A DNA stretch of 64,000 nucleotides from a virus (Duplodnaviria > Caudoviricetes), in IMG/VR virus record IMGVR_UViG_3300035182_002389, positions 32,001 to 96,000 of that record; one strand, 5' to 3'. Within the stretch, counting starts at the first letter, position 1; every line of letters starts with the position of its first letter. The position numbers were made by a program, and so were the translations under genes. Below, piece by piece: positions 4,496-46,061 of the stretch. Under the pieces are notes generated by a model that saw only the letters and a list, made by a program, of their open reading frames with translations, did not search any database and had not been told where the DNA came from.

Positions 4496-4561
4496 CGACC
4501 TTCGGTCGAGCACGGGCTTTGCCCGAGGACGCGCCTTCGGCGCGAGGACGGCCTTCGGCCG
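4496..4561. repeat. Four-hairpin triloop array, copy 1
   Basis: CGACC-TTC-GGTCG AGCA CGGGC-TTT-GCCCG AGGA CGCGCC-TTC-GGCGCG AGGA CGGCC-TTC-GGCCG. Confidence 0.9.
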
Positions 4562-4581
4562 AGGAAGGGAGAAGCGAGCCC

Positions 4582-4857
4582 GTGAAACGACAAGGCATCG
4601 ACTACATCCGGCCCTACATCGTCATCACGCGCGACCACGCCGAGGCCTTGTTCCCGGAGTGGCCGACACTTGTCGACGGGTGTGGCAAGGCCATCCTCGA
4701 CATGGGCGGCCCTGTCATCCTCCGCATTCACGAGCCTCGCGCGAAGGATAGGGGGCGCCACCACTTCACCTTCGAGGCCCCCTCGAACAACAAGACCCTC
4801 ACGATGTGGCGGTCGAGAGACGAGGTCGCCACCGCGGCCTTCAAGAACCCGCCGTGA
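4582..4857 (+). CDS. Hypothetical protein
   Basis: GTG start after the hairpin array. Confidence 0.5.
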   Translation: MKRQGIDYIRPYIVITRDHAEALFPEWPTLVDGCGKAILDMGGPVILRIHEPRAKDRGRHHFTFEAPSNNKTLTMWRSRDEVATAAFKNPP

Positions 4858-5033
4858 GCGGCCCCATTCCCATCACGAAGTACGTCGACGGCAAGAAGGT
4901 TCCCTGCTGCCCGTACTGCGACGAGGCTCCGCTCGACGCTCGCAAACCGTCGAAGGATGGCAGCGTGCTCTGGGACTGCTGCGGATGCCTCGGCGTCTGG
5001 TTGTTTCGAGAAGGCTACTGGATCGCATTCTGA
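4854..5033 (+). CDS. Small zinc-ribbon protein
   Basis: CPYC...CCGC. Confidence 0.5.
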   Translation: MSGPIPITKYVDGKKVPCCPYCDEAPLDARKPSKDGSVLWDCCGCLGVWLFREGYWIAF

Positions 5034-5044
5034 GAGGATTCGAG

Positions 5045-5722
5045 ATGATCATCGTAGAGCCCAGCGTCGTGATCGATGGCCCCGTGGACGGGGCCAAGAT
5101 GCTCCGCGATCTCGAATGGATCGCGCGCCACTGCTACAAGAGCGAAGGGCTCATCTGCGAGGGCAGCGCAGAGAAGATGGCGAAGAAGCTCTTCGAGAGC
5201 GACCCGCCCCACGTCGCCATGGGCGATCACATCACCCTGCGCTGCGTCTTCATCTGCGACCGCGGCGTCTCGCACGAGATGGTCCGCCACAAGATCGGCG
5301 TCGCCTTCGCGCAAGAGTCGACCCGCTACTGCAACTACAGCAAGGACAAGTTCGAGCGGCAGATCACGGTCATCCGTCCGCCGAACCTCAAGCGGCCCGA
5401 GCGATGGGAGAAGGCCATGCGAGACGCCGAAGAGGCGTACATGGAGATGCTCGACGCGGGCGACCCTCCCGAGATCGCGCGCTCGGTGTTGCCGAACGCG
5501 ACCAAGACCGAGGTCGTCTGCACGCACAACATCACGGCCTGGCGCCACATCTTCAACCAGCGGGCGGTGAGCAAGCGCGCGCACCCGCAGATGCGTCAGG
5601 TGATGGCGCCGCTGCTCTCGTGGTGCCGAGAGACGATCCCCGTCCTCTTCAACGACCGCGTCCCTGCGCCGCTCCCGGAGGGCGTGAAGCCCGCGATCGT
5701 CACCGTGGAGTGCCGGGAATGA
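5045..5722 (+). CDS. thyX: FAD-dependent thymidylate synthase ThyX
   Basis: CDRGVSHEMVRHK...AQESTRYCNYS, ARSVLPNA, WRHIFNQR...AHPQMR. Confidence 0.92.
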   Translation: MIIVEPSVVIDGPVDGAKMLRDLEWIARHCYKSEGLICEGSAEKMAKKLFESDPPHVAMGDHITLRCVFICDRGVSHEMVRHKIGVAFAQESTRYCNYSKDKFERQITVIRPPNLKRPERWEKAMRDAEEAYMEMLDAGDPPEIARSVLPNATKTEVVCTHNITAWRHIFNQRAVSKRAHPQMRQVMAPLLSWCRETIPVLFNDRVPAPLPEGVKPAIVTVECRE

Positions 5723-6126
5723 GCGACCGCGAGGAGATGCGCAAGAACCCGTGGATCTTTCACGTCTTTCCTCCGAAGGTCGAGACGTGCACGGTGTGCG
5801 GCGGCTGCAAGTGTCAGAACCACCCGAAGATGCTCGTCTACCTCGACGGGCCGAGCTGGTCGCGCGAGCAGATGGTGCCTCCAGGCACAACGGTGCAAGA
5901 GCTGTCGGACTGGTGCGACAAGCTCCCTCACGTTCGACCTTTCCCGGTCCCCTGGGAAGGCATCGAGCGCCTTCACGCCGTCCTCAACGGCTTGCGGCAA
6001 GTCGTGCCCCCGGACGACGAGCTTCAGGCCATGGGGTTCGAGGTCGAGGGGCTCCTCGTCATCGTCGTGCCTCACAAGGCCGCGCGCCGGCCGATCTCGC
6101 CGCCCACCGTGAGCCCCTTGAACTGA
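5719..6126 (+). CDS. Hypothetical protein
   Basis: ATGA overlap with thyX; CxxC motifs. Confidence 0.55.
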   Translation: MSDREEMRKNPWIFHVFPPKVETCTVCGGCKCQNHPKMLVYLDGPSWSREQMVPPGTTVQELSDWCDKLPHVRPFPVPWEGIERLHAVLNGLRQVVPPDDELQAMGFEVEGLLVIVVPHKAARRPISPPTVSPLN

Positions 6127-6127
6127 G

Positions 6128-6340
6128 ATGGACGCGAGGACCGCTTGGATCTTCGCGGGCGCAGTGTGGTGCTGCACCCTGCTCAGCATCGGCGTTACGC
6201 GGCTCTTGATCTGGAGGCTGCGCAAGAAGGTCGTCAGGCTCGAAAAGGCCGCCGCCCTGCACGACGAATGGTCGAAATCGAGGAAGGCGTCCGACAAAGG
6301 GACGCGCGTCCTCGACCTCGACCTTCACGACGAAGGCTAG
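6128..6340 (+). CDS. Small membrane protein
   Basis: N-terminal TM helix. Confidence 0.55.
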   Translation: MDARTAWIFAGAVWCCTLLSIGVTRLLIWRLRKKVVRLEKAAALHDEWSKSRKASDKGTRVLDLDLHDEG

Positions 6341-6672
6341 TCGCGGTCTCGGAGCGCGCCGAGGACCGAGTAGGCCGCGCCGGCTGCGAGGCGGTCCATG
6401 TTCTCTTGGTGGCGGGCCTCTGGAGTCATCGAAGCGAGGCGGGTCTGGTCCTTGTTCCACATCCAGATGCCGACGCCCACCAGGCCGACCACGAGACCGC
6501 CGACGAGCAGGGTGCCGGTCGTGATCCCGGTCTGCTGCGGGGGCGCGGCATAGCCGATGGGCTGCGTGAACTGCGGGTCAGCGACGGGGACGACGGGAGC
6601 AACGACCGCTCCGGTGGAGGCGTTGCAAAGGAGGGGGCGACGGTACGGAGCGGCCATGGGCGGATCGTACAT
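6337..6672 (-). CDS. Membrane-anchored protein, possibly virion-associated
   Basis: STGA motif and TM segment LLVGGLVVGLVGVGIWMWNK. Confidence 0.55.
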   Translation of the reverse strand: MYDPPMAAPYRRPLLCNASTGAVVAPVVPVADPQFTQPIGYAAPPQQTGITTGTLLVGGLVVGLVGVGIWMWNKDQTRLASMTPEARHQENMDRLAAGAAYSVLGALRDRD

Positions 6673-6730
6673 GGCGTGAGATGACGCGACAACCGCGTCT
6701 ACGGGCAGGCGGCAGGAAAGGCGGGTGGCG

Positions 6731-8781
6731 ATGCTGAGTCGAATCACAGCGCAGCGCAAAAGGCGCTGTTTTATGGTCTACGACATGGAGTGGATCCCGG
6801 GCCAGTTGGAGGTCCGTCTCCTCGGCCTGTACGACGGCGACCGATACCGCGCGTTCCACAAGGTCGACGACTTCCTCAACGCGGTGCTGGTGCGTGAGAA
6901 CGCGGACAAATGGCTCTACGCCCACTACGGCGGCATGGCCGACGCGCAGTTCCTCCTCCAGCGCCTCGCCTCGCGCGCGGACGAGGGCTTTCAGATCGAC
7001 GCGTCCTTCTCGGGCTCGTCGGCCATCATCATCCACGTCACGCGCGGCGAGCTGAGCTGGCACTTCATCGACAGCTTCTGGCTGCTGCGCGATCGGCTCT
7101 CGAAGATCGGCGAAGCGGTCGGCCTCGAAAAGATGGGCGAAGAGTACGCCTGCGACAACTTCCCGAACTGCGGACACGTCGACAGCAACGAGATGAAGTA
7201 TCTCGATCCCTGCTCGTGCACGCACTCCTATGGAGCGCACGACAAGCAGCCGGGCACCAAGGACCTCGCGTGCCTCGCGTGCGGGTGCAGGAAATACGAC
7301 GGCGATCACCCCTACGCGATGTGCGTCTTCTGGGCGCCGATCGCCGAGCTGACGACGTACAACGAACGCGACTGCGTCATCTTGTACAAGGCCATCGAGC
7401 GCTTCGAGCAGACGCTGCTCGATCTCGGCGGCCAGCTCCAGATGACGATTGCCTCGTGCGCGATGCACCTCTTTCGTCGCAAGTACCTCCAAGACGACAT
7501 TCGCACCGTCGCCGCCGTCAACGGGTGGGCTCGAAAGGCCTACACGTCTTCACGCGTGGAGGTGTTCCAGACCCACTGTGAGAACGCTCACTATTTTGAC
7601 CTGAACTCGTCTTTTCCGTTCGCGATGACATTTGACTGTCCTGGCAACGTGAAGAAGATGCGCGCGAAGAAGCTGCCTCCCTACGGCAGCATCTACATCG
7701 CCGAGTGCGAGATCATCGTGCCCGAGATGTACCTGCCGCCGCTGCCGTTCCGGCACGACGGGCGCGTCTTCTTCCCGACGGGCACGTGGACGAGCTGGTT
7801 CTCGAACATCGACCTGGAGCTGCTTCAGAAGCGCGGCGGACGAATCGTGAAGGTGATTCAGTCCATCGAGTTCGAGAAGCAATCCTCTCTTCGCGAGTAC
7901 GCGATCGACATCTATGCAAAGAGAAAAGCCGCGACGACGAGCTACGAAAAGCTCATCCTCAAGTATCTGTTGAATAGCCTTGGGGGCGGGATGCGGATGG
8001 CGCCCTTGGCCGCATCCCGAGCCCCCTCTGGCGCCCATAGGAACTCTACGGAAAGTTCGGCGAGCGCACCGAGAAGACCTCGATGCTGCTCCATCCAACG
8101 TCGACCGACTGTCCTCACACGCCGAAGCATCGGTGCGACAGTTGGCCCATCTGCCCGCACGCCATCGAAGGCGTCGAGTGCAACCTCTGCATCCAGATGC
8201 TGTTCCCTGGGTGTTTGCTCGTCACCAACGAGGTCGAGCTGGCGCACGAGTGGGTGCCCATCGCGGTCCACATCACGGCCACCGCCCGCAAGAACCTCGA
8301 AGGTCACCTCTGGAATGCGCAGGAGGACATCTACTACTGCGACACCGACAGCGTCATCACGACCGTGCAGCTCCCGAGCGATCCGACCACCCTCGGCGCG
8401 CTCAAGCTCGAAGACGAGATCCGTAAGGGCGAGTTCATCGCCTGCAAAATCTACGCGGTCGAAGTCATCGACGAGAAGACTGGCCACGGTCACTGGAAGA
8501 CCAAAGCAAAAGGCTTCTCCAAGATGAACTACAGCAAGTTCGTCGACGTGAAGCTCGGCAACGACATCAAGCTCGCGCGCATGACGCGCATCCGCGAGCT
8601 GTATCGAAAGGGCAAGATCGTCCCCGAGGAGAACATCGTCGCCAAACGCCTCGTGCAGAAGTGCATGGCGAAGCGCTGCATGCTCCCGTCGGGACAAAGC
8701 CGCCCTTGGACGATCGAGGAAATCCAGAGAAACCGCATGGATCTCGGCATCGACATCGATCCCATGATCCTGTCGGATTGA
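6731..8781 (+). CDS. polB: Family B DNA polymerase of protein-primed type, split by a 65-nt insert (segments 6731-7981 and 8047-8781)
   Basis: Exo YDME / HFIDSFWLL / YNERDC; motif A YFDLNSSFPFAM; motif B KYLLNS+LYGKFG across the break; motif C YCDTDS; KAKG. Confidence 0.9.
7982..8046 (+). other. 65-nt structured intervening sequence in polymerase motif B
   Basis: Removal restores the frame and NSLYGKFG; perfect 10-bp stem 7987-7996/8010-8019 plus G5/C5. Confidence 0.85.
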
Positions 8782-8831
8782 CGTTCGCCCTGGGCGACAC
8801 ATATTACGCAGATCCGCAAAAGGCTGAACCG

Positions 8832-9416
8832 ATGGCGAAGATGAACCTGTCGACGCGCACCCTCTTGGCCGTGGGCATCACGATGATGGCGGTGGAAGCC
8901 GCCCGCATCCTGCTCGGCCTCACGGCAATCCTGTCGACGCGCCTCGTCGGGTTCATCTCCGTCGGTCTCGGCGCGTCCATCGTGATCGAGACCCTCGTCA
9001 TCGCGTTGCTGTCGCGCATCTCGTCGACGCCCAAGATCATGCGCTCGTTCGCGAACGCGGCGCTCCCCGGGCTCTGGATCGTCGCCTACTACTTCACGGG
9101 CGGGGCTCGCGCGGTCGCGGTCTCGCTCGGGATCTACTTCGTCATCTTGAACGCGATCGAGCTGTTCGGCGCGCGCAGCCGGAGCACCGCGAAGATTTCG
9201 ACGGCGGTGCAGCAATCCGGCGGGGTGACGATGGCGTGCAATGAGCTGTGCACGTGCGAAGCGTGCCAAGGCTACGACGACGCCGTTGAAGCGCTCGTCG
9301 CTGCGGAGGCGTCCCCGGACGACCTGCAAGACCCCGTGCGCCGATTCGTGCTCGCGAGAACGCGAATGGTGAAGGCCCACGAAGAAGACGAAGCTGTCGA
9401 ACCGCCGCTCGTGTGA
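8832..9416 (+). CDS. Multi-pass membrane protein
   Basis: About 4 hydrophobic helices. Confidence 0.6.
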   Translation: MAKMNLSTRTLLAVGITMMAVEAARILLGLTAILSTRLVGFISVGLGASIVIETLVIALLSRISSTPKIMRSFANAALPGLWIVAYYFTGGARAVAVSLGIYFVILNAIELFGARSRSTAKISTAVQQSGGVTMACNELCTCEACQGYDDAVEALVAAEASPDDLQDPVRRFVLARTRMVKAHEEDEAVEPPLV

Positions 9417-9426
9417 GGAGAAGTCC

Positions 9427-9579
9427 ATGAAGATCCTTCAAATCGTCCGCCGCACCACCCGCACCATCGCCGGTTCGTTCTTTCTCGGCCTCGGGTCGAG
9501 CCTCCTCGGCGTGCCGAACGAGACCTTCGACGAGTGGATGAAGATGGCTCTTCTCCACGACGTCGTGAGCGCGCCGTGA
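9427..9579 (+). CDS. Small hypothetical protein
   Basis: GAGGAG RBS; not in the ORF track. Confidence 0.45.
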   Translation: MKILQIVRRTTRTIAGSFFLGLGSSLLGVPNETFDEWMKMALLHDVVSAP

Positions 9580-9655
9580 GCAACGACGAAGCCTCCGCCC
9601 CGCCCTCGAACTCAAGCACAAGGTCGGCCTCGCCGTCCTTGGTGCGACGTGGTTC

Positions 9656-10147
9656 GTGCAAGCGATCGCGGCAATCTACTTCATCGCCGTCGTTCCCGCG
9701 CATCACGTTGGAGCCCTCTGCACTCTCATCGCAGCGATGTATCTGATTCGAGGTGCAAGCGTCACGTTTCTCACGACGACCGTTTCGTTCCGCCCGGTTG
9801 CGAACGAGATCCTTTCGGCGATCCTTCCGGCGCTCTGGGCCGTCGCGCTCTACAAGGGCTCGGACTCCCGAGCGATCGTCCTGGTCTCGGCGGCGTGGTT
9901 GCTTGTAACCGCCGCGCAAGCGATCGGCGGGACCACCGTGAAGGTGTGGAGGGTCATACGGATGATGCGCGGCGAGATCGACGAGGATGGCGATGACCCG
10001 AGCTGTCCCGACTGCGTCGAGACGGGGCTTGCTCACAAAGCGTTCTTGGACGCGGGCCGCCGTGGCGACGACATGGACGAGACGGGGCGCGCACTTTTTG
10101 AGGCTACGGCGAGGATGTACAAGGCGCACGGCAAGGAGGGGCCGTGA
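9656..10147 (+). CDS. Membrane protein (start uncertain)
   Basis: 3-4 TM helices; frame open upstream to 9569. Confidence 0.5.
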   Translation: MQAIAAIYFIAVVPAHHVGALCTLIAAMYLIRGASVTFLTTTVSFRPVANEILSAILPALWAVALYKGSDSRAIVLVSAAWLLVTAAQAIGGTTVKVWRVIRMMRGEIDEDGDDPSCPDCVETGLAHKAFLDAGRRGDDMDETGRALFEATARMYKAHGKEGP

Positions 10148-10524
10148 AGACGCCTCCCATGCGCGTCGAGGGCATGCCTGAGAGCCCCGAGCGAACCGCC
10201 AAGCGGCTCGGCTTGTCGAAAGCCGTCGTCGATTCGCTGCGGCGTCTGCTTGGCATGGGGCCGAAGAAGAAGACCGCGCCGAAGAAGGTCCGCCAGTTGC
10301 TCGATCTCCTCCACGGCGGACATCAAGAAGTGTGGGTCTTCTGGGAGGACACCGTCAAACCGACGAAGAACGTCCGGTCGGCCGCAGAGTGGCACTGCCA
10401 CGTGACCGGAACGCGCACGTTCGACCGCCACTCGCTGTCGGCCTTCACGGGCGTGCCCGTCGAGGTGCTGATGTCGGACGACCTGAAGCTGCTCCTCCCC
10501 TACGGCATCCGTCTTGCGCGGTAA
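10144..10524 (+). CDS. Hypothetical protein
   Basis: GGAGGG RBS, GTGA overlap. Confidence 0.55.
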   Translation: MKTPPMRVEGMPESPERTAKRLGLSKAVVDSLRRLLGMGPKKKTAPKKVRQLLDLLHGGHQEVWVFWEDTVKPTKNVRSAAEWHCHVTGTRTFDRHSLSAFTGVPVEVLMSDDLKLLLPYGIRLAR

Positions 10525-10591
10525 TGACAATCATGAGCTTGCCGCGCGAGAAGAGAGCCGCCTATTGCAAGCGTTCTGGTATCGTCAAAAC

Positions 10592-11584
10592 ATGTCACAT
10601 GCGCCCGTGATGTACACGCTGTCCGCGCCGAGCCTTTCGGCCCTCGGACAGATCCAAGGAAACTTCAACGACGGCGATCTTGGCGTCGTGGGCCGCGTGT
10701 TCTACGTCTATCGCTCGGCCATTCCTGCGCTGCCGCCCATAGGTGGAACCCTCGCCTACGGAAAAGGGTATTGGGCGCCGTTCAACGATGTCCCCCTCAG
10801 TGAGACGACGCGCGAAATCATCGTCGTGGCAAGCGGGACAACCTCAGCGTTTCGGACGCCCGTCGGCTCGTATTTCGCGGCTCATTCCGAAGACGTGCAA
10901 GTCGACATTTCGACCGACGGCGGTACGAACTGGATCGAGCAGCAATACGGTCCCGACTACAACGCCTACTACTCGGGCATGTGGAACCCGCCGTACGAAC
11001 AGCCGATGAGCGTGCGCGATGTTGCTTCTGGCATCTGGATTTCGGGGGGCTTCCCGCCCGCGGGCTGGCTCGTCCGAATCCGATGGATCGAGCGGACCGC
11101 GGTCTTCTTTCCGCGCACCGTGAGCCCGACGAGGTTCGACTTCAACGGGATCGCCTGGATCGTGAACAACGCCGTGTCGTGGACGACGAGCAACGAGTTG
11201 TACAATCCCAACGGGGTTATCGTTCCGCCTGGGCCCAGCGGGTTCGTTCCTGAGCTGTGGCGCGTAGGACGACATCGCGGAGGGCTCAACCGATCCACGG
11301 TCGGCAAAGACTTTCACGGGTCGGGCCGCCGCTTGCTGCCTTATTTCCGCGGCCCGCAAGCCATCGTGGCCGATCCCAACGGGCTGGTGTTCATCGGCAC
11401 GTCCGACATCGCGGGCCCGTCGCTTTGCAAGTTGAAGTTTCGCGTCTGCTACTACAGTCCAACGCTTCGCGCCCGTACTCCGTTCGCGCCCGGACTCATC
11501 ACGCGTTTTGCGAAGCTCGATCGGCATAACGGCAACTCCACCACCGTCCGCAAGGCGCAAACGATCTACGTGGATCCGTCCTGA
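10592..11584 (+). CDS. Beta-rich protein, possibly virion- or fibre-associated
   Basis: Asp-box-like ISTDGGTNW; lower GC than neighbours. Confidence 0.55.
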   Translation: MSHAPVMYTLSAPSLSALGQIQGNFNDGDLGVVGRVFYVYRSAIPALPPIGGTLAYGKGYWAPFNDVPLSETTREIIVVASGTTSAFRTPVGSYFAAHSEDVQVDISTDGGTNWIEQQYGPDYNAYYSGMWNPPYEQPMSVRDVASGIWISGGFPPAGWLVRIRWIERTAVFFPRTVSPTRFDFNGIAWIVNNAVSWTTSNELYNPNGVIVPPGPSGFVPELWRVGRHRGGLNRSTVGKDFHGSGRRLLPYFRGPQAIVADPNGLVFIGTSDIAGPSLCKLKFRVCYYSPTLRARTPFAPGLITRFAKLDRHNGNSTTVRKAQTIYVDPS

Positions 11585-11605
11585 TGAAGTGGTAGTCTTT
11601 TTTCC

Positions 11606-11702
11606 GATGCGACCGTGAAGCCGTGGTCCTTTAGCATTCCGGTCGGAGTTCTTTAGGGTGCCGTTCGGCGCCACTTTAGGATCACGCCTCCACGGTCGCA
11701 TC
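11606..11702 (+). ncRNA. Candidate structured RNA (symmetric three-way junction)
   Basis: 12-bp closing stem GATGCGACCGTG/CACGGTCGCATC and three CTTTAG units; intergenic. Confidence 0.5.
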
Positions 11703-11783
11703 TGAGCTTTTGATGCTCCCCGCAGATTCTCTCCATCGCCCCATCACGCTCGCGCCCCTGACGGGGGCGGCGTGGAGGACGCC

Positions 11784-12089
11784 ATGGGAGATCGAAGCCG
11801 TTGCAAAGATCGTGGTCGAGGGGATCGTCGAGACTGCACGCGCGCGTGCGCGCTGAGCGCCTGGAAGCTCTGGACGCGCGTCATGGGCTCAACGTGGCCC
11901 GTGCCCGCAGGGAAGTTCAAGAAGCGTCAGGCGATGAGCTGTCGGTGCCGCAAGCACCCCGTCGGGAGCCCCAAGGTCGGAGGGTCGCTCTGCCACGGGG
12001 GCGCCTATCATCCGGCGACCGTCGAGCGCATCGTCGGCAAGCGCCTCGCGCGCGATTGGCTACGCTTCGGTGAGACGGAGGAACGATGA
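11784..12089 (+). CDS. Cys-rich basic hypothetical protein
   Basis: GGAGG RBS. Confidence 0.5.
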   Translation: MGDRSRCKDRGRGDRRDCTRACALSAWKLWTRVMGSTWPVPAGKFKKRQAMSCRCRKHPVGSPKVGGSLCHGGAYHPATVERIVGKRLARDWLRFGETEER

Positions 12090-12409
12090 AGCACGTGATC
12101 CTGGTCGGCCTCGGCCTCTACGTCGTCGTGATGTTCCTCGTCAGCGTCAACCGCACACGCTACGTGATGGCAGGGATGGCGAAGCTGAGGGGCGGAGCGA
12201 CGCTTCCCTTCGCTTGGGCCTACTGGAAGGGCTGGGTCGGGGTCGCGTGGTTCACGCTCTCGGGCATGGTCACCATCCCGTACGAACTCGCCCTCATCGC
12301 TCGCAAGTACGTCAAAGTCCGACGCTCGCAGGATGAGATGGGCGCTGTCGAGGTCCTCGCGGCGCCGAAGGATCCTCCGAGCGAGGAGCCGCCGAGCGAG
12401 GGCCCGTGA
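12086..12409 (+). CDS. Membrane protein
   Basis: Two hydrophobic segments. Confidence 0.55.
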   Translation: MKHVILVGLGLYVVVMFLVSVNRTRYVMAGMAKLRGGATLPFAWAYWKGWVGVAWFTLSGMVTIPYELALIARKYVKVRRSQDEMGAVEVLAAPKDPPSEEPPSEGP

Positions 12410-12663
12410 TCAAGTACGCGATCCTCGCCTACGGGCTCGTCGGGATCACCAACGCGGTCTGGTGGTGCTGGACGGTGCTCGCATTTGCGGCGGCCAAGCA
12501 AGGCTACGACCGCATCCCCTTCGAGGATCTGACCGCACGAATGTGGTGGGGAGCCTTCCTGTTCGGGCTCAAGCAGGCGCTCACCTGGCCCGTGGACGTC
12601 GTGCGACGATTGCGCATGTACGCGTACGGGCGAGGGTGGGTGGACAGGCTCCCGCCCTCGTGA
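12406..12663 (+). CDS. Membrane protein
   Basis: Two hydrophobic segments. Confidence 0.55.
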   Translation: MIKYAILAYGLVGITNAVWWCWTVLAFAAAKQGYDRIPFEDLTARMWWGAFLFGLKQALTWPVDVVRRLRMYAYGRGWVDRLPPS

Positions 12664-12676
12664 GGCTCGCGAGGGT

Positions 12677-13078
12677 TCAGATGCTGGAGCGGCGGCGCGG
12701 CGGCGAGATCGCGAGCGAGCCCATCGAGACGGGGCCGCGCGCGATCGAGTACCTGCCGCCGACCGAGATCCCCTCGCTGCGCAGGCTCGATCGACGCTTG
12801 TCCGACTCGACCTTGTGGATGGCCGCGTCGATCGTCTGAACCAGATGCGTGCGCAGCCAGCCCTTGACCTCGGCGCGCTCGGCGACCGTGAACTTCGATC
12901 GGTAGCCGATGAACTCGACGTGCTGGACGGCGGCGGCCACGAGGTTGCGGCGGTAGTCGTGAAGGTTTCGCCACACCTCCGAGTTCAGGTCCACGGCGAC
13001 CTTGTGCCGCATGGACGCGAGGTAGTCTTTCGGGCTCTGGCCCATGAGGGCCTCGAAGACATCGTTGAAGTGGCTCAT
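12677..13078 (-). CDS. Hypothetical protein (leaderless start)
   Basis: TATACT 7 nt before the ATG. Confidence 0.55.
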   Translation of the reverse strand: MSHFNDVFEALMGQSPKDYLASMRHKVAVDLNSEVWRNLHDYRRNLVAAAVQHVEFIGYRSKFTVAERAEVKGWLRTHLVQTIDAAIHKVESDKRRSSLRSEGISVGGRYSIARGPVSMGSLAISPPRRRSSI

Positions 13079-13099
13079 GTGCGCGAGTATAGCTCCGAG

Positions 13100-13114
13100 G
13101 GCTTGGCGCAAGCC
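13100..13114. promoter_or_regulatory. Palindromic box between divergent genes
   Basis: GGCTTGGCGCAAGCC, 16 nt before TGG-TACGCT. Confidence 0.65.
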
Positions 13115-13142
13115 AGCGCGCAAACGGTGGTACGCTGCGCTC

Positions 13143-13535
13143 ATGGACAGCACCTGGAAGTGGGCGGCCGGAGCATTGGGGCTCGGCGTGGTCGGCTACT
13201 TGGTCCTGCGGCCGGGCGCTTCCGCGGACGCTCCCAAGCTCGTGCTTCGGACCGAGTGGAACGCATCGCACCGCTCGCCGCTGCTCACCGAGGTCTCCGC
13301 CGCGGAACTCGCGGCGGCCTCGGCACACATCCCGAGGCTCCCCACGCAGGGAGAGCTTGCCGCGACCATCGTGCGCGGCGGCGTCGTTTCGGTGCGCCCT
13401 GTCGGCATCGAGTCCTACGACGCGAGCACGGGCATCGGACAAATCTACGATCGCACCGATCTCGCCGCCCCGCAGTCGTGGTCGAACGTGCGCGTCGCCG
13501 ATTTCGTGGGCGCCGTTTCGTTCCTGATCCACTGA
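13143..13535 (+). CDS. N-terminally membrane-anchored protein
   Basis: WKWAAGALGLGVVGYLVLR; leaderless. Confidence 0.6.
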   Translation: MDSTWKWAAGALGLGVVGYLVLRPGASADAPKLVLRTEWNASHRSPLLTEVSAAELAAASAHIPRLPTQGELAATIVRGGVVSVRPVGIESYDASTGIGQIYDRTDLAAPQSWSNVRVADFVGAVSFLIH

Positions 13536-13552
13536 GGCGCCAAGCGCCGTTC

Positions 13553-13918
13553 CTAGACCGTCGAAGCCTTGAGCACGAGGTTTCGCGGCAGCGGGCCCCG
13601 GTAGAGGATCTGCTCCAGGATGACGTCGTCGCCGTCGAAGTCGTACCCGATCGAACCGCCCGCCTTTCGCAGCGCCGCGACGTTGATCTCGACGAGCATC
13701 GGCGTCGACTTGTCGTGACACCCCGCGCTCTCGGCGTAGTCGCACGCCGTGTCCTCGTTGTTCGTGAGGTAGAGGCCTTCGGTCAACGCGGCGCTGCGAA
13801 GCTTCCTCAACCCCTTCTCGCTCGTCCCGTGCCACAGGCGCGTGGGCCAGATCCAGACGGAGACAGGCTTGTGCGAAGTCGACGTCTTCGCGCGGGCGGG
13901 CTTCTTCACGGCGCTCAC
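13553..13918 (-). CDS. ADP-ribosyltransferase-fold protein
   Basis: LWHGTS...GLYLT...ACDYA. Confidence 0.55.
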   Translation of the reverse strand: MSAVKKPARAKTSTSHKPVSVWIWPTRLWHGTSEKGLRKLRSAALTEGLYLTNNEDTACDYAESAGCHDKSTPMLVEINVAALRKAGGSIGYDFDGDDVILEQILYRGPLPRNLVLKASTV

Positions 13919-14232
13919 CGCGGCAGATGGTCTTTTGCGAGCATCACGGTGCCGCCGAGGACCATCGCGGTGCCGGCGAGAAACCTCCACGACAGATCGC
14001 CCGCGGGCGAGTCGATCATGCCGCCGACGCCGAGTCCCGCGCCGGCGGTCGCGATCCCTGCGTAGACGAAATCGCTACGATGGGCGACGGTCCCGTAGAT
14101 GGAGAGCGCGGCGCCGGCGGCAGAGGCCACCATCGCGCCGGTCTTCATCCACGCCGGCAAGGGCGCGGGCGTCGTGGCCGGGGCGTCCGCGCCGACGCTC
14201 GCGCGGGCGGCGAGCGGAGCTGAACGAACCAT
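13915..14232 (-). CDS. Small multi-pass membrane protein
   Basis: Three Gly/Ala-rich hydrophobic helices. Confidence 0.55.
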   Translation of the reverse strand: MVRSAPLAARASVGADAPATTPAPLPAWMKTGAMVASAAGAALSIYGTVAHRSDFVYAGIATAGAGLGVGGMIDSPAGDLSWRFLAGTAMVLGGTVMLAKDHLPR

Positions 14233-14311
14233 CGAAACAGAGCGAGCGAGGGAGGGGCGGGCGTAGGACATGAGGGACCTCGACGTCGAGGCTACCATGG
14301 ACGCGGGCCTT

Positions 14312-14896
14312 CTACGAACGCCGCGCGTTGCTCGCAGCGATCCTTCGTGCCTCGCGCGCGGCAGCTCGGCGCACGTCGGAGAGCTGCTTCTTCAGCCTCG
14401 CGATCTCGGCCTGCGGCATCGCGCGGACGTCCGGGCCCGGGTAGTGGTAGCTGCGGTACGGGTAGACGGCCTTGGGCAACGGCAGACCCGTGTCGAACTC
14501 GCGGCCGAGACGCTCTTCGATCCAGCCCGGCGCGCCGTACTCCTCGCGCACGTACGCGTCGAGCGGAATGACGCGCAACAGGGCAAGCTTGCGGTACGAG
14601 GTCGCGGGCACGAACATCTCGCCGCCGTAGCGCCCGTGCACGCCTGCGTCGTGAACGATGGAGGGGTCGACCCTGAACTCGGCGAGGAAGGGGCGCATGT
14701 ACCCGTGCTCGTTCACCCACGTCTCCGGGCGCGGGCCGAGGTAGATGCCGGGCCTTCCCGAGCGGTCTTCGAGCGCAAACGCGTTGTCCTCGGGCGCGAA
14801 CTTCGCGTCGAGCTTGAAGCGTGCGCGCTCGGTCAGGTGATACCAGACCGGCTGCACGAGGGAGTGGCGTTGCGACAGGCTCGACACCGATGACAC
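14312..14896 (-). CDS. ART-fold-like protein (start approximate)
   Basis: WYHLT...GIYLG. Confidence 0.45.
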   Translation of the reverse strand: MSSVSSLSQRHSLVQPVWYHLTERARFKLDAKFAPEDNAFALEDRSGRPGIYLGPRPETWVNEHGYMRPFLAEFRVDPSIVHDAGVHGRYGGEMFVPATSYRKLALLRVIPLDAYVREEYGAPGWIEERLGREFDTGLPLPKAVYPYRSYHYPGPDVRAMPQAEIARLKKQLSDVRRAAAREARRIAASNARRS

Positions 14897-41582: not shown

Positions 41583-41882
41583 ATGAAGACGACGCAGAAA
41601 CGCGGGATCACGGAGACGACCGTCACCTTTCGGATGTCGAGCGCGCTCAAAGAGGAGGTCGCCTCTTTCGCGCGCGAGCGTGGCGAGACGATGACGGCGT
41701 TCGTCTGCCGCGCCTTGCACGACGCGACCAGACCCGGCGTCCGCGCCGAGGTCATCGAAGAGAAACTCGCCGCCCGCATGAGCGAGCGCGAAGGAGAGCT
41801 TCGCGAGCAGCTCCTCGAAACCCAAGCCGACCTCGACGCCGCGAAACGTGTCATCGCGCGTCTGAAGGGGATCGGGCCATGA
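41583..41882 (+). CDS. Ribbon-helix-helix DNA-binding protein
   Basis: TVTFRMSSALKEEVASFARERGETMTAFVCRAL. Confidence 0.65.
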   Translation: MKTTQKRGITETTVTFRMSSALKEEVASFARERGETMTAFVCRALHDATRPGVRAEVIEEKLAARMSEREGELREQLLETQADLDAAKRVIARLKGIGP

Positions 41883-42295
41883 ACGGGCGTACGGGAATCT
41901 TCCAGCCTCGCCTCGGGGACTACGGTCGCTGCACGGCGCGCCATCGCGTCGGCGACAAGACCTTCCGCTGCTCGAACAAGGGCAGGCGCGTCGAGCGTTT
42001 CGTCGGCGGCGAAGACCAGTGGACGATCATCTGCCCCCTGCACGGGCTCACCAAGGAAGAGGAGCGCATGGGTAAGGAGAACTACGGCGAGGGCGAGGAT
42101 CGCGACGTCCCCGAAGAACCGTACCGCCAACAGCACGACATCTGGTGCGACGCGCGGCCGACCGACGTCCACTGCCAGTGGGTCGAGAACGTCGGCATGA
42201 CGGTCATCGACTGCGTGGCGGCTCGGAGGCGCGAGTTCCTGAGCGACCGCAACGCCCGTCCTCGCGCGCATGACGAAGGTGAGGGCGTGCCGTGA
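41879..42295 (+). CDS. Hypothetical protein
   Basis: ATGA overlap. Confidence 0.5.
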   Translation: MNGRTGIFQPRLGDYGRCTARHRVGDKTFRCSNKGRRVERFVGGEDQWTIICPLHGLTKEEERMGKENYGEGEDRDVPEEPYRQQHDIWCDARPTDVHCQWVENVGMTVIDCVAARRREFLSDRNARPRAHDEGEGVP

Positions 42296-42504: not shown

Positions 42505-42713
42505 GCTTGCTCTACGATCTCACGAACTGCGAGCACCCCGACGATCGACGCGCGCAGGCGATGCTCACGAACGGGGTCATGCAGTGGTGCGCTTGCTGCG
42601 GCGCGTGCCGTCTTCTGCAAGGGCAGCATCCGGGACCGTGGCGGCGCCCCGATCTCGTGGAGGCTGCCATTCGCCGCGTCGTTGCGGCAGCGAAAGACGA
42701 GGATGCTTCATGA
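42501..42713 (+). CDS. Small hypothetical protein
   Basis: ATGA overlaps. Confidence 0.5.
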   Translation: MSLLYDLTNCEHPDDRRAQAMLTNGVMQWCACCGACRLLQGQHPGPWRRPDLVEAAIRRVVAAAKDEDAS

Positions 42714-42961
42714 AGGTCTACATGGTCGACGGGCCCTACAAGGTCTTCGTCACGTGCACGTGCATGAAGTGCAAGGCCGAGTACCCAGCCTCGACGCCCG
42801 AGGTCATGCGCGGCCCGGGGCTCGTCGAAGACATCGGCATCTACCGCACCCCGTGCCCGAAGTGTGGTGAGGCCGAACGTGTGATGACCGTCGGCACGCC
42901 GGAACCCTTCAAGGGCCCATCGCCGTGGGCCGGCAAGACCGGCATCGAAAGTTGGCACTGA
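42710..42961 (+). CDS. Small zinc-ribbon protein
   Basis: CMKC...CPKC. Confidence 0.55.
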   Translation: MKVYMVDGPYKVFVTCTCMKCKAEYPASTPEVMRGPGLVEDIGIYRTPCPKCGEAERVMTVGTPEPFKGPSPWAGKTGIESWH

Positions 42962-42962
42962 C

Positions 42963-43910
42963 ATGAGCGACCCTCGCGAACCGACCAAAGAAGACCGCAT
43001 CTACGCGGCACGCGTGACGGGTACCTACCACCACGAGTCCATCAAGAGCTGGATCGAGACGGGCGTTCAAACGGAGGGAACGCCGTCGGAGGATCAGGAA
43101 ACGACCTACGAGCTGGCCGACCGCTTCGCGCGGGTCCGTCTCGAAGGCCGCGCGGCGGGATTCCACGTCGGCTACGAGGACGCCCTGCACAACGTCGAGG
43201 GCGCCATCGCATCGAGCTACTGCTGGCCGGGCGACTGGCGCGAGCACGAGCTGGATCCTGTCCGGTGCGCGAAGGGCATCATCGAAGAAGCATGCAAGGA
43301 GATGCCGGACGCCGAGACGGCGACCGCATGGGTCTGGCGCTTCGAGATGAACGAGGAGCTGTTCGCGGCCGACGAGCGCGGGTTCCGACGCGGCGCCAAG
43401 GTGTGCGGCGCCGTTCTCGGCGACATGTTTCATGGAACGGAGCACGAGACGCTCTGCGAGCTTCCTCGCGAGCACACGGGGCTGCACGAGAAGACGGACG
43501 TCAACGCGCGCTCGACCGTCTCGTGGGGCTCGTGGGGCATCACGGAAGTCGCCCCGCAAGTGATCCCGGAAGTGATCCCGGAAGTCGTCTCGAAGAAGCG
43601 CGAGCCCTGCGATTGCGACCAAGGCTGGGTCCGTCGCTACCTCCCCGACCGCGAGGAGCGCTGTCGCAAATGCAATCCCCTACGCCACAGGGTCGACGAG
43701 TTCGGGCCCGACAGCAACGGGCGCTGCACGGCGTGCCTTTCGCGCGCTGCGTCCGAGCGCCGCATCCCGGACCGAAAGATCCCCTGCCCCGCGCACGGGC
43801 ACATGGGCGACGGGGCTCGGTGCCGCCAGTGCGAGACCCGGCCCGCTGTCGGCGAACCTCCCATCGGTCTCGACGGTCTCTGTGCAGAATGCTGGAAGAA
43901 GGGGCGATGA
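42963..43910 (+). CDS. Hypothetical protein with Cys-rich C-terminus
   Basis: 315 aa, GC3 bias. Confidence 0.6.
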   Translation: MSDPREPTKEDRIYAARVTGTYHHESIKSWIETGVQTEGTPSEDQETTYELADRFARVRLEGRAAGFHVGYEDALHNVEGAIASSYCWPGDWREHELDPVRCAKGIIEEACKEMPDAETATAWVWRFEMNEELFAADERGFRRGAKVCGAVLGDMFHGTEHETLCELPREHTGLHEKTDVNARSTVSWGSWGITEVAPQVIPEVIPEVVSKKREPCDCDQGWVRRYLPDREERCRKCNPLRHRVDEFGPDSNGRCTACLSRAASERRIPDRKIPCPAHGHMGDGARCRQCETRPAVGEPPIGLDGLCAECWKKGR

Positions 43911-44098: not shown

Positions 44099-44123
44099 CA
44101 GGTACATTACTTAGTGCGACTAT
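44095..44123 (+). promoter_or_regulatory. Promoter P6
   Basis: TTGACA-N17-GACTAT; spacer ends in TACTTAGTGC. Confidence 0.65.
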
Positions 44124-44132
44124 CGGCCCAAG

Positions 44133-45083
44133 ATGATCGAGTCCATCACGGTCAAGAACCCGAAAGCGACGGCGGTCGGCTGGTTCGAGAAGGTGTTCCC
44201 GCAAGGGCTCACCATGAAGTTCTCCCCCGGGCTCAACGTGCTCTGGGGCGCGAACGGCTCGGGGAAAAGCACCATCCTTCGCCTGATCGCGAAGATGCTC
44301 CACTGCGAGCAGGGCTACGAGCCCGTCGTCACGAGCGAGTCGATGCGCTCGTTGACGCCCAGGTACGCAGACCGTTCCTCTTCGTCCAAGGAGGCGACGA
44401 GGAAGGAGAGGTTCGACGCCGTGCAGCTCGTGCACTCGGGCCTCGGCACCTGCCTGTTCGACCCCGACCACAAGGTCGGCCTCATCGGCGGCGCGTTCGA
44501 TGACGATTTCTTCTCGCAGGGGCTCATGAACACGATGTTCCGGGGCTCGTCGGGGCAGGGCACCATGCACCGCTTCGATCGGGTGCTCGTGCGCGCGATG
44601 TCCGGCAAGGCGCCCGAGGTCGTCTGGAAGGTGCGCAAGGAAGACGCGACGAAGCCTCTCAAGGCCGGGGCGTCGGACTACGACATCGAGCGCCACGAGC
44701 AGGCGAAATGGGTCCTCGACACGCTCGCGGGCGACCCCACCATCGCGGACGCGGAGCGCCCCACGTTCATGATGGACGAGCCCGACCGCAGCCTCGACAT
44801 CCTGCGCCAGAAGAGCATCTGGCACATGCTGCGATGCGCCTCGCAGCGCTCGCAGATCATCGTCGCCGCGCACTCGCTGTTCGCGCTCGGTCTCCCCGAG
44901 GCGACGTACCACAAGCTCGGGGCGCCGGGCGCTCCCGCGGACCTCTACTACGACCGCTCGCTCGCGCAGGTCGCGGAGCTGCCCACGTGGCCTTCGATGA
45001 AGATCGAGATGAGCGCGGGCCAGAAAAAGGCCATCGACGCGGCCGTCAAGGACCAAGAGAAAAACAAGGACCCGTTCGGATGA
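44133..45083 (+). CDS. Soluble ABC-type ATPase
   Basis: Walker A GANGSGKST, signature SSGQG, Walker B FMMDEPD, H-loop IVAAHS. Confidence 0.85.
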   Translation: MIESITVKNPKATAVGWFEKVFPQGLTMKFSPGLNVLWGANGSGKSTILRLIAKMLHCEQGYEPVVTSESMRSLTPRYADRSSSSKEATRKERFDAVQLVHSGLGTCLFDPDHKVGLIGGAFDDDFFSQGLMNTMFRGSSGQGTMHRFDRVLVRAMSGKAPEVVWKVRKEDATKPLKAGASDYDIERHEQAKWVLDTLAGDPTIADAERPTFMMDEPDRSLDILRQKSIWHMLRCASQRSQIIVAAHSLFALGLPEATYHKLGAPGAPADLYYDRSLAQVAELPTWPSMKIEMSAGQKKAIDAAVKDQEKNKDPFG

Positions 45084-45271
45084 CCGTTCTGCACCTCGGC
45101 CCCGCTGTCCTGCCCGCGTGGACGTGGCCCGAAGAGGCCACCTACAACACCTGGCACATGGAGCTTCGCAACGACAAGCTCGACCTGCACCACGGCTTCT
45201 ACCTGCTGCTCGCCTACCTCTCGGGCGCGTACTACCCCACCGCCACCATCTCGGAGGGAAACGAGCCGTGA
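45080..45271 (+). CDS. Small hypothetical protein
   Basis: ATGA overlap. Confidence 0.45.
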   Translation: MTVLHLGPAVLPAWTWPEEATYNTWHMELRNDKLDLHHGFYLLLAYLSGAYYPTATISEGNEP

Positions 45272-45489
45272 GCGCCCTGAACTGCACTGGCCCGCGCGAC
45301 GGGCAGCCTTTCGCCGAGCGGTGCGGGCTGCCGGCAGCGTACCGCACGCCGAGCGGCGATCGGTGCGAGGCGTGCGCCGAGCGCGAGAAGGCTGCCATCC
45401 GTGACGGCGCGTGCATCCTCGCGATCCTGGCCGACAAGAAGGGCGTTTCACGTGAAACGTTGCTCGCGAAGTACGTGAGGATCCAATGA
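45268..45489 (+). CDS. Small hypothetical protein
   Basis: GTGA overlap. Confidence 0.45.
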   Translation: MSALNCTGPRDGQPFAERCGLPAAYRTPSGDRCEACAEREKAAIRDGACILAILADKKGVSRETLLAKYVRIQ

Positions 45490-45845
45490 GCGACGACGCA
45501 ATCATCGAACCGCCCGCGCCCGCGACCATCGAAAGTTCCGCGTCCACCGAGGAAGGCGTTTCCGAAGCCTTTGATGTGAGCAACGTCGTGCATCTCGTGC
45601 CTCGCGCGCACGAGGACAAGTGGCCCGAGGCGACCGAGTTCCTCAAGCAGCTCGTCGCGATGTCCGAGCGCGGAGAGCTTGCCCAGATCGGCATCGTCTT
45701 CGAGCGCGTCGACACGGTGTCGAGCTTTCGCGCCATCTTCCGGCCGGGGTCGAGGCCGGCCCGTCTCCTTGGCGAGCTGGAAGTCATGCGCACCGCCATC
45801 GCCATCCACCTCTGCCCGCGCCCCACGACCGAGGTCAAACCATGA
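45486..45845 (+). CDS. Hypothetical protein
   Basis: ATGA overlap. Confidence 0.55.
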   Translation: MSDDAIIEPPAPATIESSASTEEGVSEAFDVSNVVHLVPRAHEDKWPEATEFLKQLVAMSERGELAQIGIVFERVDTVSSFRAIFRPGSRPARLLGELEVMRTAIAIHLCPRPTTEVKP

Positions 45846-45995
45846 CCGACAAGCACGAGCCCGCGCGCCTCGATTTCGACCGGATCCGCGAGCGAAGTCG
45901 CAACTCGAAACCATCTGCCCAACGAATAAATCGCCGTTATACGCAGGACCGATGAACTCGACGTATAACGCGAGCGCGAGACGGGACGAAAAGGA

Positions 45996-46061
45996 CGGCC
46001 TTCGGCCGAGCACGGGCTTCGCCCGAGGACGCGCCTTCGGCGCGAGAACGGCCTGCGGCCG
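45996..46061. repeat. Four-hairpin triloop array, copy 4
   Basis: CGGCC-TTC-GGCCG AGCA CGGGC-TTC-GCCCG AGGA CGCGCC-TTC-GGCGCG AGAA CGGCC-TGC-GGCCG. Confidence 0.9.

Follow-up and report, generated by a model that had tools for sequence, protein, structure and literature searches.

The genome of an uncultured bacterial virus (202,518 bp; completeness 94%, a CheckV estimate) carries six dispersed arrays, each made of exactly four triloop hairpins and all on the + strand. They are perhaps best explained, with a probability that falls a little short of even, as a lineage-specific mosaic repeat of palindromic units, REP/BIME-like in behaviour without being a member of that family, and copied between gene joints by recombination. 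The repeat behaves like a DNA rather than an RNA element. The stretch analysed here (the window) comprises 64,000 nt, bases 32001–96000 of the single contig IMGVR_UViG_3300035182_002389. Arrays 1–4 are given in window positions, and arrays outside the window in genome coordinates.

Number and architecture of the arrays

A preliminary description of the window reported four arrays of perfect hairpins with 5–6 bp stems and 3-nt loops, and all 16 hairpins are confirmed at their positions. The same holds for the linkers (AGCA, AGGA and AG(G/A)A), the preceding AAAAG(G/A)A and the loops read on the minus strand (GAA 11, GCA 2, AAA 2 and AAC 1, all closed by C–G). The observation is larger than first reported, as a scan of the whole genome yields six arrays instead of four: four inside the window (Table 1) and two outside it, starting at genome positions 113587 and 125685. 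A seventh array is present in a related strain. In the six arrays, 22 of the 24 hairpins are perfect and the remaining two carry one C·A mispair each. The scan gave no array of one, two, three or five units anywhere in the genome. With a covariance model derived from the arrays, the six reach 67–112 bits and the rest of the genome ≤19 bits. The frequent appearance of such arrays in shuffled sequence had been foreseen as an argument against their significance, but second-order Markov simulations (n = 30 genomes) produced none with at least four perfect triloop hairpins and only 0.03 per genome with at least three. Searches of other viruses, phages and Myxococcota genomes yielded no comparable array.

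Table 1. Location, stem composition and model score of the arrays in the window (window positions)
Array	Extent	Strand	Hairpins	Stem types	Covariance model (bits)
1	4470–4581	+	4496–4561	a b c d	112.1
2	16549–16648	+	16569–16636	c a e f	90.7
3	19451–19560	+	19471–19540	c f e e	67
4	45972–46082	+	45996–46061, after leader	d b c d	111.7

Each copy forms one block of ~80–110 nt, consisting of a GA-rich leader with GAAAAG(G/A)A at its 3′ end, four mini-palindromes and a purine-rich tail. In array 1, the leader is composed of (GAGAC)3 plus GAAAAGGA, ahead of the four hairpins. The hairpin units are perfect palindromes of 13–15 nt with CG at both ends; they occur in six stem variants, distinguished by single base-pair swaps, and are separated by 4-nt linkers of fixed sequence and fixed order. 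Unit count (always four), linker order and leader do not vary in any of the seven arrays or among the strain orthologues. So regular a design exceeds what a junk repeat would require, and it counts against the REP/BIME-like reading. Immediately upstream of array 1 are (GGTCCC)n repeats and family-B hairpins, which are inverted, with GAA loops on the + strand.

Pairing, strand and loops

Covariation was assessed on ten array sequences (seven loci and three strain orthologues). Of the alignment cells, 98.4% pair versus 84% in shuffles, and 0/500 shuffles reach 98.4%. Seven of the 21 pairs have changed on both sides and none on one side only, while partners slid out of register are paired in at most 50% of cases. 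The covariation thus bears out the proposal that structure, not sequence, is conserved in the stems. Stem-breaking substitutions, named in advance as evidence to the contrary, do occur, in the form of a C·A mispair in three units across the seven arrays. G·T or G·U pairs are absent from all 189 cells of the alignment.

In each unit, ~13 of 17–19 positions are invariant, including the asymmetric linker and the loop, as would suit double-stranded binding sites for a regulator, that is, a four-site operator or scaffold made of palindromes rather than hairpins. However, the variable stem positions stay complementary within a unit, which a duplex-binding protein would not require. Moreover, the six half-site variants differ, the 17–19 bp spacing is out of helical phase, and the positions include gene 3′ ends and an ORF interior. 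Binding to the duplex is an improbable explanation.

The strand is constant in 7/7 arrays (two-sided p about 0.016), in agreement with the early observation that the copies point the same way irrespective of how flanking genes are oriented. Read on the minus strand, 24/28 units of the seven arrays have GNA loops, and the two loop differences found between strains both affect the middle base. In DNA, loops of the GCGAAGC type have an extraordinary stability that TTC loops lack (PMC13037366). With DNA parameters (ViennaRNA, in which GNA loops are not modelled), the four-hairpin fold is the energy minimum on both strands, with z-scores of −2.1 to −3.3; with RNA parameters it is not the minimum, other folds win and z-scores range from −0.2 to −2.3. 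Collectively, the constant strand, the GNA loops on the minus strand, the lack of wobble pairs and a minimum reached with DNA parameters only suggest a DNA-level rather than an RNA element, and a hairpin of DNA is better supported than one of RNA. Local hairpins could nevertheless be favoured when RNA folds as it is transcribed, which counts against a REP/BIME-like DNA reading. The argument from orientation is indirect, and GNA-type mini-hairpins elsewhere in the genome (arrays excluded), which occur in both orientations, weigh against it.

Gene context and effects on expression

Relative to local transcription, four arrays are sense and three are antisense; hence no single RNA role fits. The arrays are confined to tolerable places, namely just 5′ of a + gene start, in a dispensable in-frame segment of an ORF, or 4–12 nt past a minus-gene stop. 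The first situation is that of arrays 1, 4 and 7, with tails ending 16–21 nt ahead of the start codons of + genes. The purine-rich tail of array 1 ends 20 nt past the hairpins at GTG 4582, where a called 91-aa gene starts, and that of array 4 ends 21 nt past the hairpins at ATG 46083. A 44-codon ORF (ATG 45952) also runs through array 4, its stop forming an ATGA overlap with the next gene. Array 3 lies in frame within a called 569-aa sigma-region-4 protein (ATG 19439), or else 36 nt upstream of GTG 19577, the point where homology to the only relative sets in. Arrays 2, 5 and 6 begin 4–12 nt past the stop codons of minus genes; array 2 sits between two such genes, with its tail end 12 nt from the stop codon (TCA, 16649–16651) of a 160-aa gene.

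These positions could be those of a dual-use RNA cassette. Sense copies would act as structured 5′ leaders ending in a Shine–Dalgarno-like tail by the start codon, and antisense copies, with four hairpins and a U-tract, would terminate or stabilize minus-strand mRNAs past the stop codon. Unit 1 plus T(C/T)CTTTTCG scores as terminator-like on the minus strand, where array 2 reads as four hairpins followed by UCCUUUUCG. In silico, arrays 2, 5 and 6 place a GC-rich hairpin and then a U-tract behind a gene on that strand; no minus gene precedes arrays 1, 3, 4 and 7 in this way. Four terminator-like sites occur within 80 nt past minus-gene stops in the whole genome, and three of them are arrays. 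The same three (2, 5 and 6) are those retained in strains 93–97% identical. In strain contig L218, which retains array 2, the sole changes are one in a loop and one in the leader, the latter making the U-tract longer. Nevertheless, the cassette leaves unexplained the lack of flipped copies as terminators (for ~198 + genes) or as leaders of minus genes. The weak z-scores and non-minimal fold with RNA parameters also speak against it, as do the absence of G·U pairs, the GNA loops, which are not an RNA-stable motif, and a CUUCG that is out of register for a C(UUCG)G tetraloop. Rfam returned no match at the gathering threshold over the whole window, its two chance-level hits lying near arrays 2 and 3 and none on an array. 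As the primary role of the arrays, such a cassette is quite unlikely. Side effects on expression are likely but would be secondary, through the Shine–Dalgarno-like tail of sense copies and the hairpin plus U-tract of antisense copies.

A CsrA/RsmA sponge RNA of the RsmZ type was also considered and rejected: GGA is found in linkers and not in loops, no CsrA was found in the virus genome, Rfam gives no match and the fold is not the RNA minimum.

The arrays had further been compared with N4-type hairpin promoters, which would serve a virion-carried single-subunit RNA polymerase. Stems of 5–6 bp and 3-nt purine-centred loops on the would-be template strand are as expected for such promoters, and the geometry of the three arrays 16–21 nt upstream of + gene starts fits. 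The N4 virion polymerase is a protein of ~3,500 aa with a T7-like catalytic domain; here, the largest ORF of the genome has 905 aa, and no match to T7-like RNA polymerase (PF00940) was found in the virus genome, the control genomes likewise giving none. The virus encodes a sigma region 4 protein, which implies use of the host polymerase. In addition, arrays 2, 5 and 6 would fire antisense into gene 3′ ends, and the need for four hairpins would be unexplained. Promoters of this type are close to refuted.

Turnover between strains

The arrays are not fixed essential signals, and their presence differs between strains 93–97% identical. Strain contig L092 has an array at a site where this genome has 27 unrelated bp. 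In contig L219 (94.6% identical), an 86-aa gene lies exactly at the site of array 4, where start ATG and ATGA overlap are unchanged, and a relative in ENA has a 69-aa gene call at the site of array 1. Absence from syntenic sites in relatives, which had been put forward as evidence against a conserved signal, is thus seen at some sites, and arrays are kept at others. With six to seven copies that come and go between such strains, a unique origin or packaging site is not supported.

The copies also bear traces of exchange. Arrays 1, 4, 5 and 6 are 87–94% alike, and arrays 2 and 3 resemble the others at 74–85%; none is so recent a copy that it matches another exactly, which counts against the REP/BIME-like reading. 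Arrays 6 and 7, which otherwise differ, share a C·A mispair in unit 3 (3′ arm GGCACG in both). These comparisons show that array copies swap sequence with one another and that strains differ by their gain or loss at gene joints. Orthologous arrays differ at 4 positions in 244 nt versus 3.9% in the mostly coding flanks (one-sided p 0.035; Fisher two-sided p 0.086). This somewhat better conservation hints that they may have a function for the virus.

Replication proteins and the possibility of a DNA signal

The DNA polymerase of the virus belongs to family B (PF03175, protein-primed type), and the GC skew changes sign near 115–125 kb, a pattern that replication from both ends would produce. In profile searches, the virus genome gave no match to Prim-Pol or Toprim_2 primases, and the priming signal proposed in the preliminary description has no encoded partner among these. 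A DnaB-type helicase was not found above the cut-off, nor was an HUH/Y1 enzyme. Y1 transposase/RAYT (PF01797) had no match at E ≤ 1 in the virus genome, whereas the control matched in 10/14 genomes. No enzyme able to copy the arrays was identified, another point against the REP/BIME-like reading, although the host may encode one.

A dedicated strand-specific DNA signal, in which four c(GNA)g hairpins of the minus strand, or their duplex form, would be recognized by a viral or host protein, is an unlikely explanation, although it has several points in its favour. It might provide internal starts of synthesis on the displaced strand, landing pads free of SSB or sites of single-strand nicking. 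The restriction to one strand at 6–7 sites per genome, the fixed number and order of the parts, the slightly better conservation of orthologous copies and a polymerase of the protein-primed, strand-displacing type are all consistent with it. GNA loops have a parallel in the mini-hairpins present at the G4 and RSF1010 ssiA priming sites (PMC13037366), and phage tf, in which every one of the 14 nick sites is on the top strand, offers a one-strand precedent (PMC3517423). However, single sites are dispensable between close strains, the primases, helicase and HUH/Y1 enzyme looked for were not found, and the arrays hug gene boundaries, which is needless for a replication signal. Furthermore, going by the weakly positive skew of the left genome part, displacement in the region of most arrays would affect the + strand more often than the GNA strand. 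Rather doubtful, too, is the more specific proposal that minus-strand clusters of four hairpins stay free of SSB and act as internal entry, nicking or start sites to complete displaced-strand synthesis of a 202-kb genome without a recognisable primase. To our knowledge, no such internal hairpin-cluster device exists in any protein-primed replicon. In sum, the preliminary interpretation stands as to conserved structure, constant strand and DNA hairpin, but not as to N4 promoter, unique origin or packaging site and primase partner.

Comparison with known repeats and possible mechanism

Like REP/BIME elements of Proteobacteria, the arrays consist of short, GC-rich palindromes that come in several sequence types, and, as in BIMEs, these are joined into mosaics with fixed inter-unit motifs. 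The arrays are likewise extragenic and dispersed, lie close to gene ends and differ from strain to strain. REP/BIME elements are thought to be handled as single-stranded hairpins, with secondary effects on mRNA 3′ ends (PMC2817692, PMC3116915). The differences are also clear. REPs are imperfect palindromes of 20–40 nt, whereas the units here are perfect, 13–15 nt long, with triloops and without a GTAG or CGTC head tetranucleotide. Units follow each other at regular spacing in both, but BIME units alternate, while units and arrays here are all in direct orientation, judged by loop and linker asymmetry. REP/BIMEs exceed 100 copies per genome, compared with 6 arrays and 24 units in 202 kb; they belong to bacteria and not to a virus genome, and the RAYT/Y1 transposase was not found in this one.

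Rickettsia palindromic elements share with arrays 3 and 4 the tolerance of a structured repeat in frame within ORFs. They are, however, single palindromes of 100–150 bp with a consistent peptide reading, whereas the frame through the arrays varies among copies, most of which are intergenic. The C–G-closed c(GNA)g triloop on one strand likens the arrays to d(GCGAAGC) mini-hairpins (G4-type and RSF1010 ssiA sites) and to N4 early promoters, which have strand-specific roles as single-stranded or extruded DNA in a phage setting (PMC13037366). Those hairpins are single and have a known partner (primase or virion RNA polymerase), in contrast to sets of four at dispensable sites for which no partner was found. 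The nick sites of T5-, phiKMV- and tf-like phages also number from a few to 14 per genome, dispersed on one strand (PMC3517423), but are short linear consensus words (e.g. TACT/RTGMC) and not hairpins.

For a mosaic repeat of the REP/BIME kind, the active form would be single-stranded DNA. Protein-primed strand-displacement replication is expected to expose long single strands, on which minus-strand units may fold into hyper-stable c(GNA)g mini-hairpins. Copying would proceed by recombination, gene conversion or template switching and probably not by cut-and-paste transposition, given the lack of target duplications, terminal inverted repeats and a transposase. The perfection of the stems may be kept partly through templated correction of palindromes. 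The single orientation could result from strand-specific copying, or from selection against inverted copies given single-stranded replication intermediates.

Implications for virus biology

Viral genomes are usually too compact for families of structured non-coding repeats, and the design seen here is unusually strict, with four units, fixed linkers, stems that are swapped yet paired, and one strand. If the arrays are a signal, they bear on the handling of the displaced single strand in a 200-kb genome that has a protein-primed polymerase and in which no primase was found. If they are merely a repeat, they extend REP/BIME-like biology to a virus, and their stems, kept perfect without wobble intermediates, are then also a clean example of a signature by which DNA hairpins can be told from RNA hairpins. 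The arrays also mark joints where virus strains swap small genes, which informs gene gain and loss in a large, possibly tailless virus.

Architecture of the hairpin arrays

The arrays are a real, strictly built and strand-polar repeat family, specific to this viral lineage. The four stretches in the window, each a row of four triloop hairpins (units), read exactly as in the preliminary description. A whole-genome scan for perfect triloop hairpins, and for the leader word, yields six arrays, including these four, with no lone units and no rows of two, three or five anywhere in the genome. All six lie on the plus strand with exactly four units each; perfect pairing is seen in 22 of their 24 hairpins, each of the two exceptions having a single C·A mispair. 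The GA-rich leader consists of degenerate GAGAC-like repeats and ends with an invariant GAAAAG(G/A)A. Units 1, 2 and 3 are followed by the linkers AGCA, AGGA and AG(G/A)A, and unit 4 by AGG and a purine-rich tail. Every unit has CG at its start and at its end, with a loop closed by C-G. Stem variation is confined to one or two middle pairs, leading to six stem types (a, CGACC; b, CGGGC; c, CGCGCC; d, CGGCC; e, CGCTCC; f, CGCGC), and neighbouring types are one base-pair swap apart. They follow each other in the orders abcd, caef, cfee, dbcd, dbcb and abcc, to which a related strain adds cdcf.

Three arrays and one strain orthologue went into a covariance model, which scores the six arrays at 67-112 bits and everything else in the genome at 19 bits or less. 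Among 30 genomes simulated with a second-order Markov model, arrays of at least four hairpins never occur and arrays of at least three occur 0.03 times per genome. About 1.76 Mb of other high-GC DNA contain nothing comparable except array 5 as present in a strain, and simple tandem repeats at two loci. The possibility raised beforehand that such arrays arise at this frequency in shuffled sequence is dispelled by the simulations; the other reservation, that relatives lack them, holds at some sites, while three arrays are kept.

Hairpin arrays, their gene boundaries and neighbouring features
Feature	Window position	Genome position	Local setting	Counterpart in strains
Array 1	4496-4561	36496 (start)	ends 20 nt before start codon, plus-strand gene	ENA contig: 69-aa gene call between the two flanking genes
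Array 2	16569-16636	48569 (start)	ends 12 nt before stop codon, minus-strand gene	L218: kept, one leader and one loop change
Array 3	19471-19540	51471 (start)	in frame, inside called 569-aa sigma-like ORF	
Array 4	45996-46061	77996 (start)	ends 21 nt before start codon, plus-strand gene; inside 44-codon ORF	L219: 86-aa gene at this site
Array 5		113587 (start)	ends 5 nt before stop codon, minus-strand gene	L093: kept, unit 3 perfect, one loop TCC
Array 6		125685 (start)	ends 4 nt before stop codon, minus-strand gene	L091: kept, unchanged
Array 7		site directly before ATG 133734	27 unrelated bp in this genome	L092: array, ends 16 nt before start codon, plus-strand gene
Nest of another repeat family	4341-4480		upstream of array 1	
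Open frame through array 1	4370-4582			
Hairpin interrupting polymerase gene	7961-8064		~65 nt, GC-rich	
Variable stretch	41871-42290			L219: 419 bp missing
Variable stretch	42706-43539			L219: 50 bp instead of 833 bp
TTATAC	45935-45955		~10 nt before ATG 45952	
Left contig end		1-60	~20-C run, then inverted CCACC-TGC-GGTGG hairpin of another repeat family	

Other hairpins are dispersed in the genome. The commonest loops, c(TTC/TGC)g and c(GAA/GCA)g, account for 62 of the 424 perfect triloop hairpins; these 62 lie mostly at 19-143 kb and are nearly missing from the right-hand 60 kb, and outside the arrays the two orientations are about equally frequent. The nest that adjoins array 1 comprises a 20-nt direct duplication spanning the stop codon of a 113-aa gene, two inverted c-type hairpins (GAA loops on the plus strand) and (GGTCCC)n/(GGCCCC)n runs.

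Conservation of pairing and the DNA level

Ten sequences were aligned to fit the structure; in this alignment 98.4% of the paired cells are complementary versus 84% in shuffles, none of 500 shuffles reaching this value, and sliding the partners leaves at most 50% paired. Changes affect both sides in 7 of the 21 pairs and one side in none. Structure, and not stem sequence, is thus what is kept, as had been proposed. The alignment contains no G·T or G·U intermediates, and their total lack would be unusual in a helix evolving as RNA. It is at the DNA level that the stem pairing is maintained.

The constant orientation noticed at the outset extends to all known arrays: 7 of 7 share one strand (two-sided p about 0.016), four being sense and three antisense to the local genes. 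On the minus strand, 24 of the 28 loops are GNA (GAA 20, GCA 4), and the two loop differences seen between strains change the middle base only (TTC to TGC and TTC to TCC). Mini-hairpins of the c(GNA)g kind are extraordinarily stable in DNA; the same is not true of TTC loops, which are ordinary (PMC13037366). When folded with DNA parameters, both strands have the four-hairpin form as their energy minimum (z -2.1 to -3.3, from software that has no GNA loop model). RNA parameters give preference to other long-range folds, with weak z (-0.2 to -2.3), although local RNA hairpins could still be favoured if the transcript folds as it is made. Collectively, four independent points (the single strand, the GNA loops, the absence of wobble pairs and the DNA-parameter fold) favour an action of the array at the DNA rather than the RNA level. 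Two RNA interpretations were discarded: a CsrA sponge, since CsrA has no match in the virus and the four-hairpin fold is not the RNA minimum, and C(UUCG)G tetraloops, which the register forbids.

Location at gene joints

A gene boundary adjoins the right-hand end of every array. In arrays 1, 4 and 7 the tail contains a Shine-Dalgarno-like GGAG or AAGGA. On the minus strand, arrays 2, 5 and 6 present four hairpins with T(C/T)CTTTTCG behind them and appear terminator-like in a scan. Across the whole genome, hairpin-plus-T-tract sites within 80 nt behind gene stops amount to 2 distinct sites for ~198 plus-strand genes and 4 sites for ~77 minus-strand genes, three of these four being arrays; the virus seems to end its transcripts by other means. 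A dual-use RNA cassette is accordingly conceivable but quite unlikely: always four units, a fixed linker order and slightly better conservation than in the flanks keep this and the other non-repeat readings alive, and the one-strand rule has no explanation in any RNA reading.

Array 3 lies upstream of the point where homology to the only relative of the sigma-like protein begins; this homologue (38% identity, contig L214) sits among tightly packed genes, with no array. The ORF around array 4 runs from ATG 45952 to the next gene, which it overlaps by ATGA. The TTATAC before this ATG, which is also the start of the L219 gene, looks like a candidate promoter of a leaderless mRNA. A conserved peptide encoded by the arrays was considered and rejected, because the register of the open frame differs between arrays 1, 3 and 4.

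Retention and turnover among strains

Arrays were found solely in strains of the same virus. Three are kept in metagenome contigs of 93-97% identity, and the perfect unit 3 of array 5 in L093 indicates that the mispair in this genome is recent. Over the three orthologous pairs, 4 of 244 positions differ, while the flanks, mostly coding, differ at 3.9% (one-sided p 0.035); just one of the four lies in a stem.

Other sites are variable. The gene in L219 shares its first codons and its ATGA overlap with the ORF at array 4; most likely, therefore, the array took the place of a small gene's body. No protein in a collection of 5.8 billion matches the translated open frame through array 1, which makes it improbable that the 69-aa ENA gene is a read-through of this repeat. 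The two further differences of L219 (94.6% identical) mean that small-gene turnover is frequent here even away from arrays. Cut-and-paste transposition was rejected, as target-site duplication and terminal inverted repeats are absent at two mapped junctions. Arrays 1, 4, 5 and 6 form a closer subgroup (87-94% identity). Arrays 6 and 7, otherwise different, have the C·A mispair of unit 3 in common; hence short patches are exchanged between arrays. Logan contigs from four runs, which are short-read assemblies, break at the arrays when aligned to window 4000-20000; the sole within-array difference listed, 4520 T>C (TTT loop to TTC), may derive from other copies.

Searches beyond the strains gave no array. 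In IMG/VR, a linker-pattern scan returned 10 matches, all chance coding sequence without hairpins, and none once the leader was added; no close relatives were found there via the ThyX gene (80 loci, at most 50% identity) or the polymerase (no loci). A genome_contigs pattern scan gave at least 120 matches; among those listed, almost all are acidic or histidine coding repeats and none is a true array. The covariance model detected no array in 5 + 151 Myxococcota genomes, with few candidates scored per genome; three weak matches (24-33 bits) were dismissed, all being coding sequence. Against 50,697 phage records array 2 gave no blastn match; a megablast of 8 kb of the window against the phage collection was likewise empty, and no Rfam family matched. 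Tandem 17-nt repeats of GGCGAGGACGCCCGTCC in the Saltatorellus ferox chromosome (L109:420-560 and 1398-1504) and in L175:3080-3215 look like arrays in their AGGA and GC stem, but their units are identical and AGGA is in the loop. Probably they are simple repeats with no relationship to the arrays.

Replication setting and candidate DNA signals

The virus is represented by a single contig of 202,518 bp (65% GC), linear and 94% complete according to CheckV; the window spans its bases 32001-96000. End repeats are missing from this contig, and its right end has no inverted repeat matching the left end, so the ends are probably incomplete. The DNA polymerase is of the protein-primed type B (PF03175), nearest to those of tectiviruses and Methanosarcina spherical virus; ThyX and a sigma-region-4 protein are also encoded. 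In the hairpin that interrupts the polymerase gene, which is not an array unit, the GGGGGCGGGATGCGG arm pairs with CCGCATCCCGAGCCCCC. GC skew of the plus strand is near zero or slightly positive up to ~115 kb, switches at ~115-125 kb and is clearly negative (-0.05 to -0.13) over the right 80 kb, independently of gene orientation. This pattern would fit a linear genome replicated from both ends. No match to Y1 transposase, Prim-Pol, Toprim_2, CsrA or T7-like RNA polymerase was found in the genome, and DnaB_C gives a single weak match at ~167 kb, below the cut-off.

Several phages, namely T5, phiKMV and tf, have one-strand nick sites (PMC3517423). By analogy, the arrays could be a dedicated DNA signal, whether for displaced-strand initiation, as a landing pad or as nick sites on one strand; this is unlikely, yet shares the points that sustain all non-repeat readings. 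An array of operators bound as duplex shares them too and is distinctly improbable. The N4-type hairpin promoter suggested earlier has next to no likelihood left: no T7-like RNA polymerase was found and the genome has no ORF above 905 aa.

Relation to known repeat families

In dispersal, strain-level turnover, mosaic make-up and tolerance in leaders, ORFs and 3′ ends, the arrays resemble REP/BIME elements, and their in-frame copies recall Rickettsia palindromic elements. Of five defining REP/BIME features tested, the arrays lack four, namely the form of the unit, the copy number, the alternation of orientation and a RAYT gene. Thus, the arrays work like REP/BIME without belonging to them. It is tempting to propose, tentatively and with somewhat less than even confidence, that they are a repeat that would be copied from gene joint to gene joint by recombination or template switching and would be active as single-stranded DNA, any effects on expression being secondary only.
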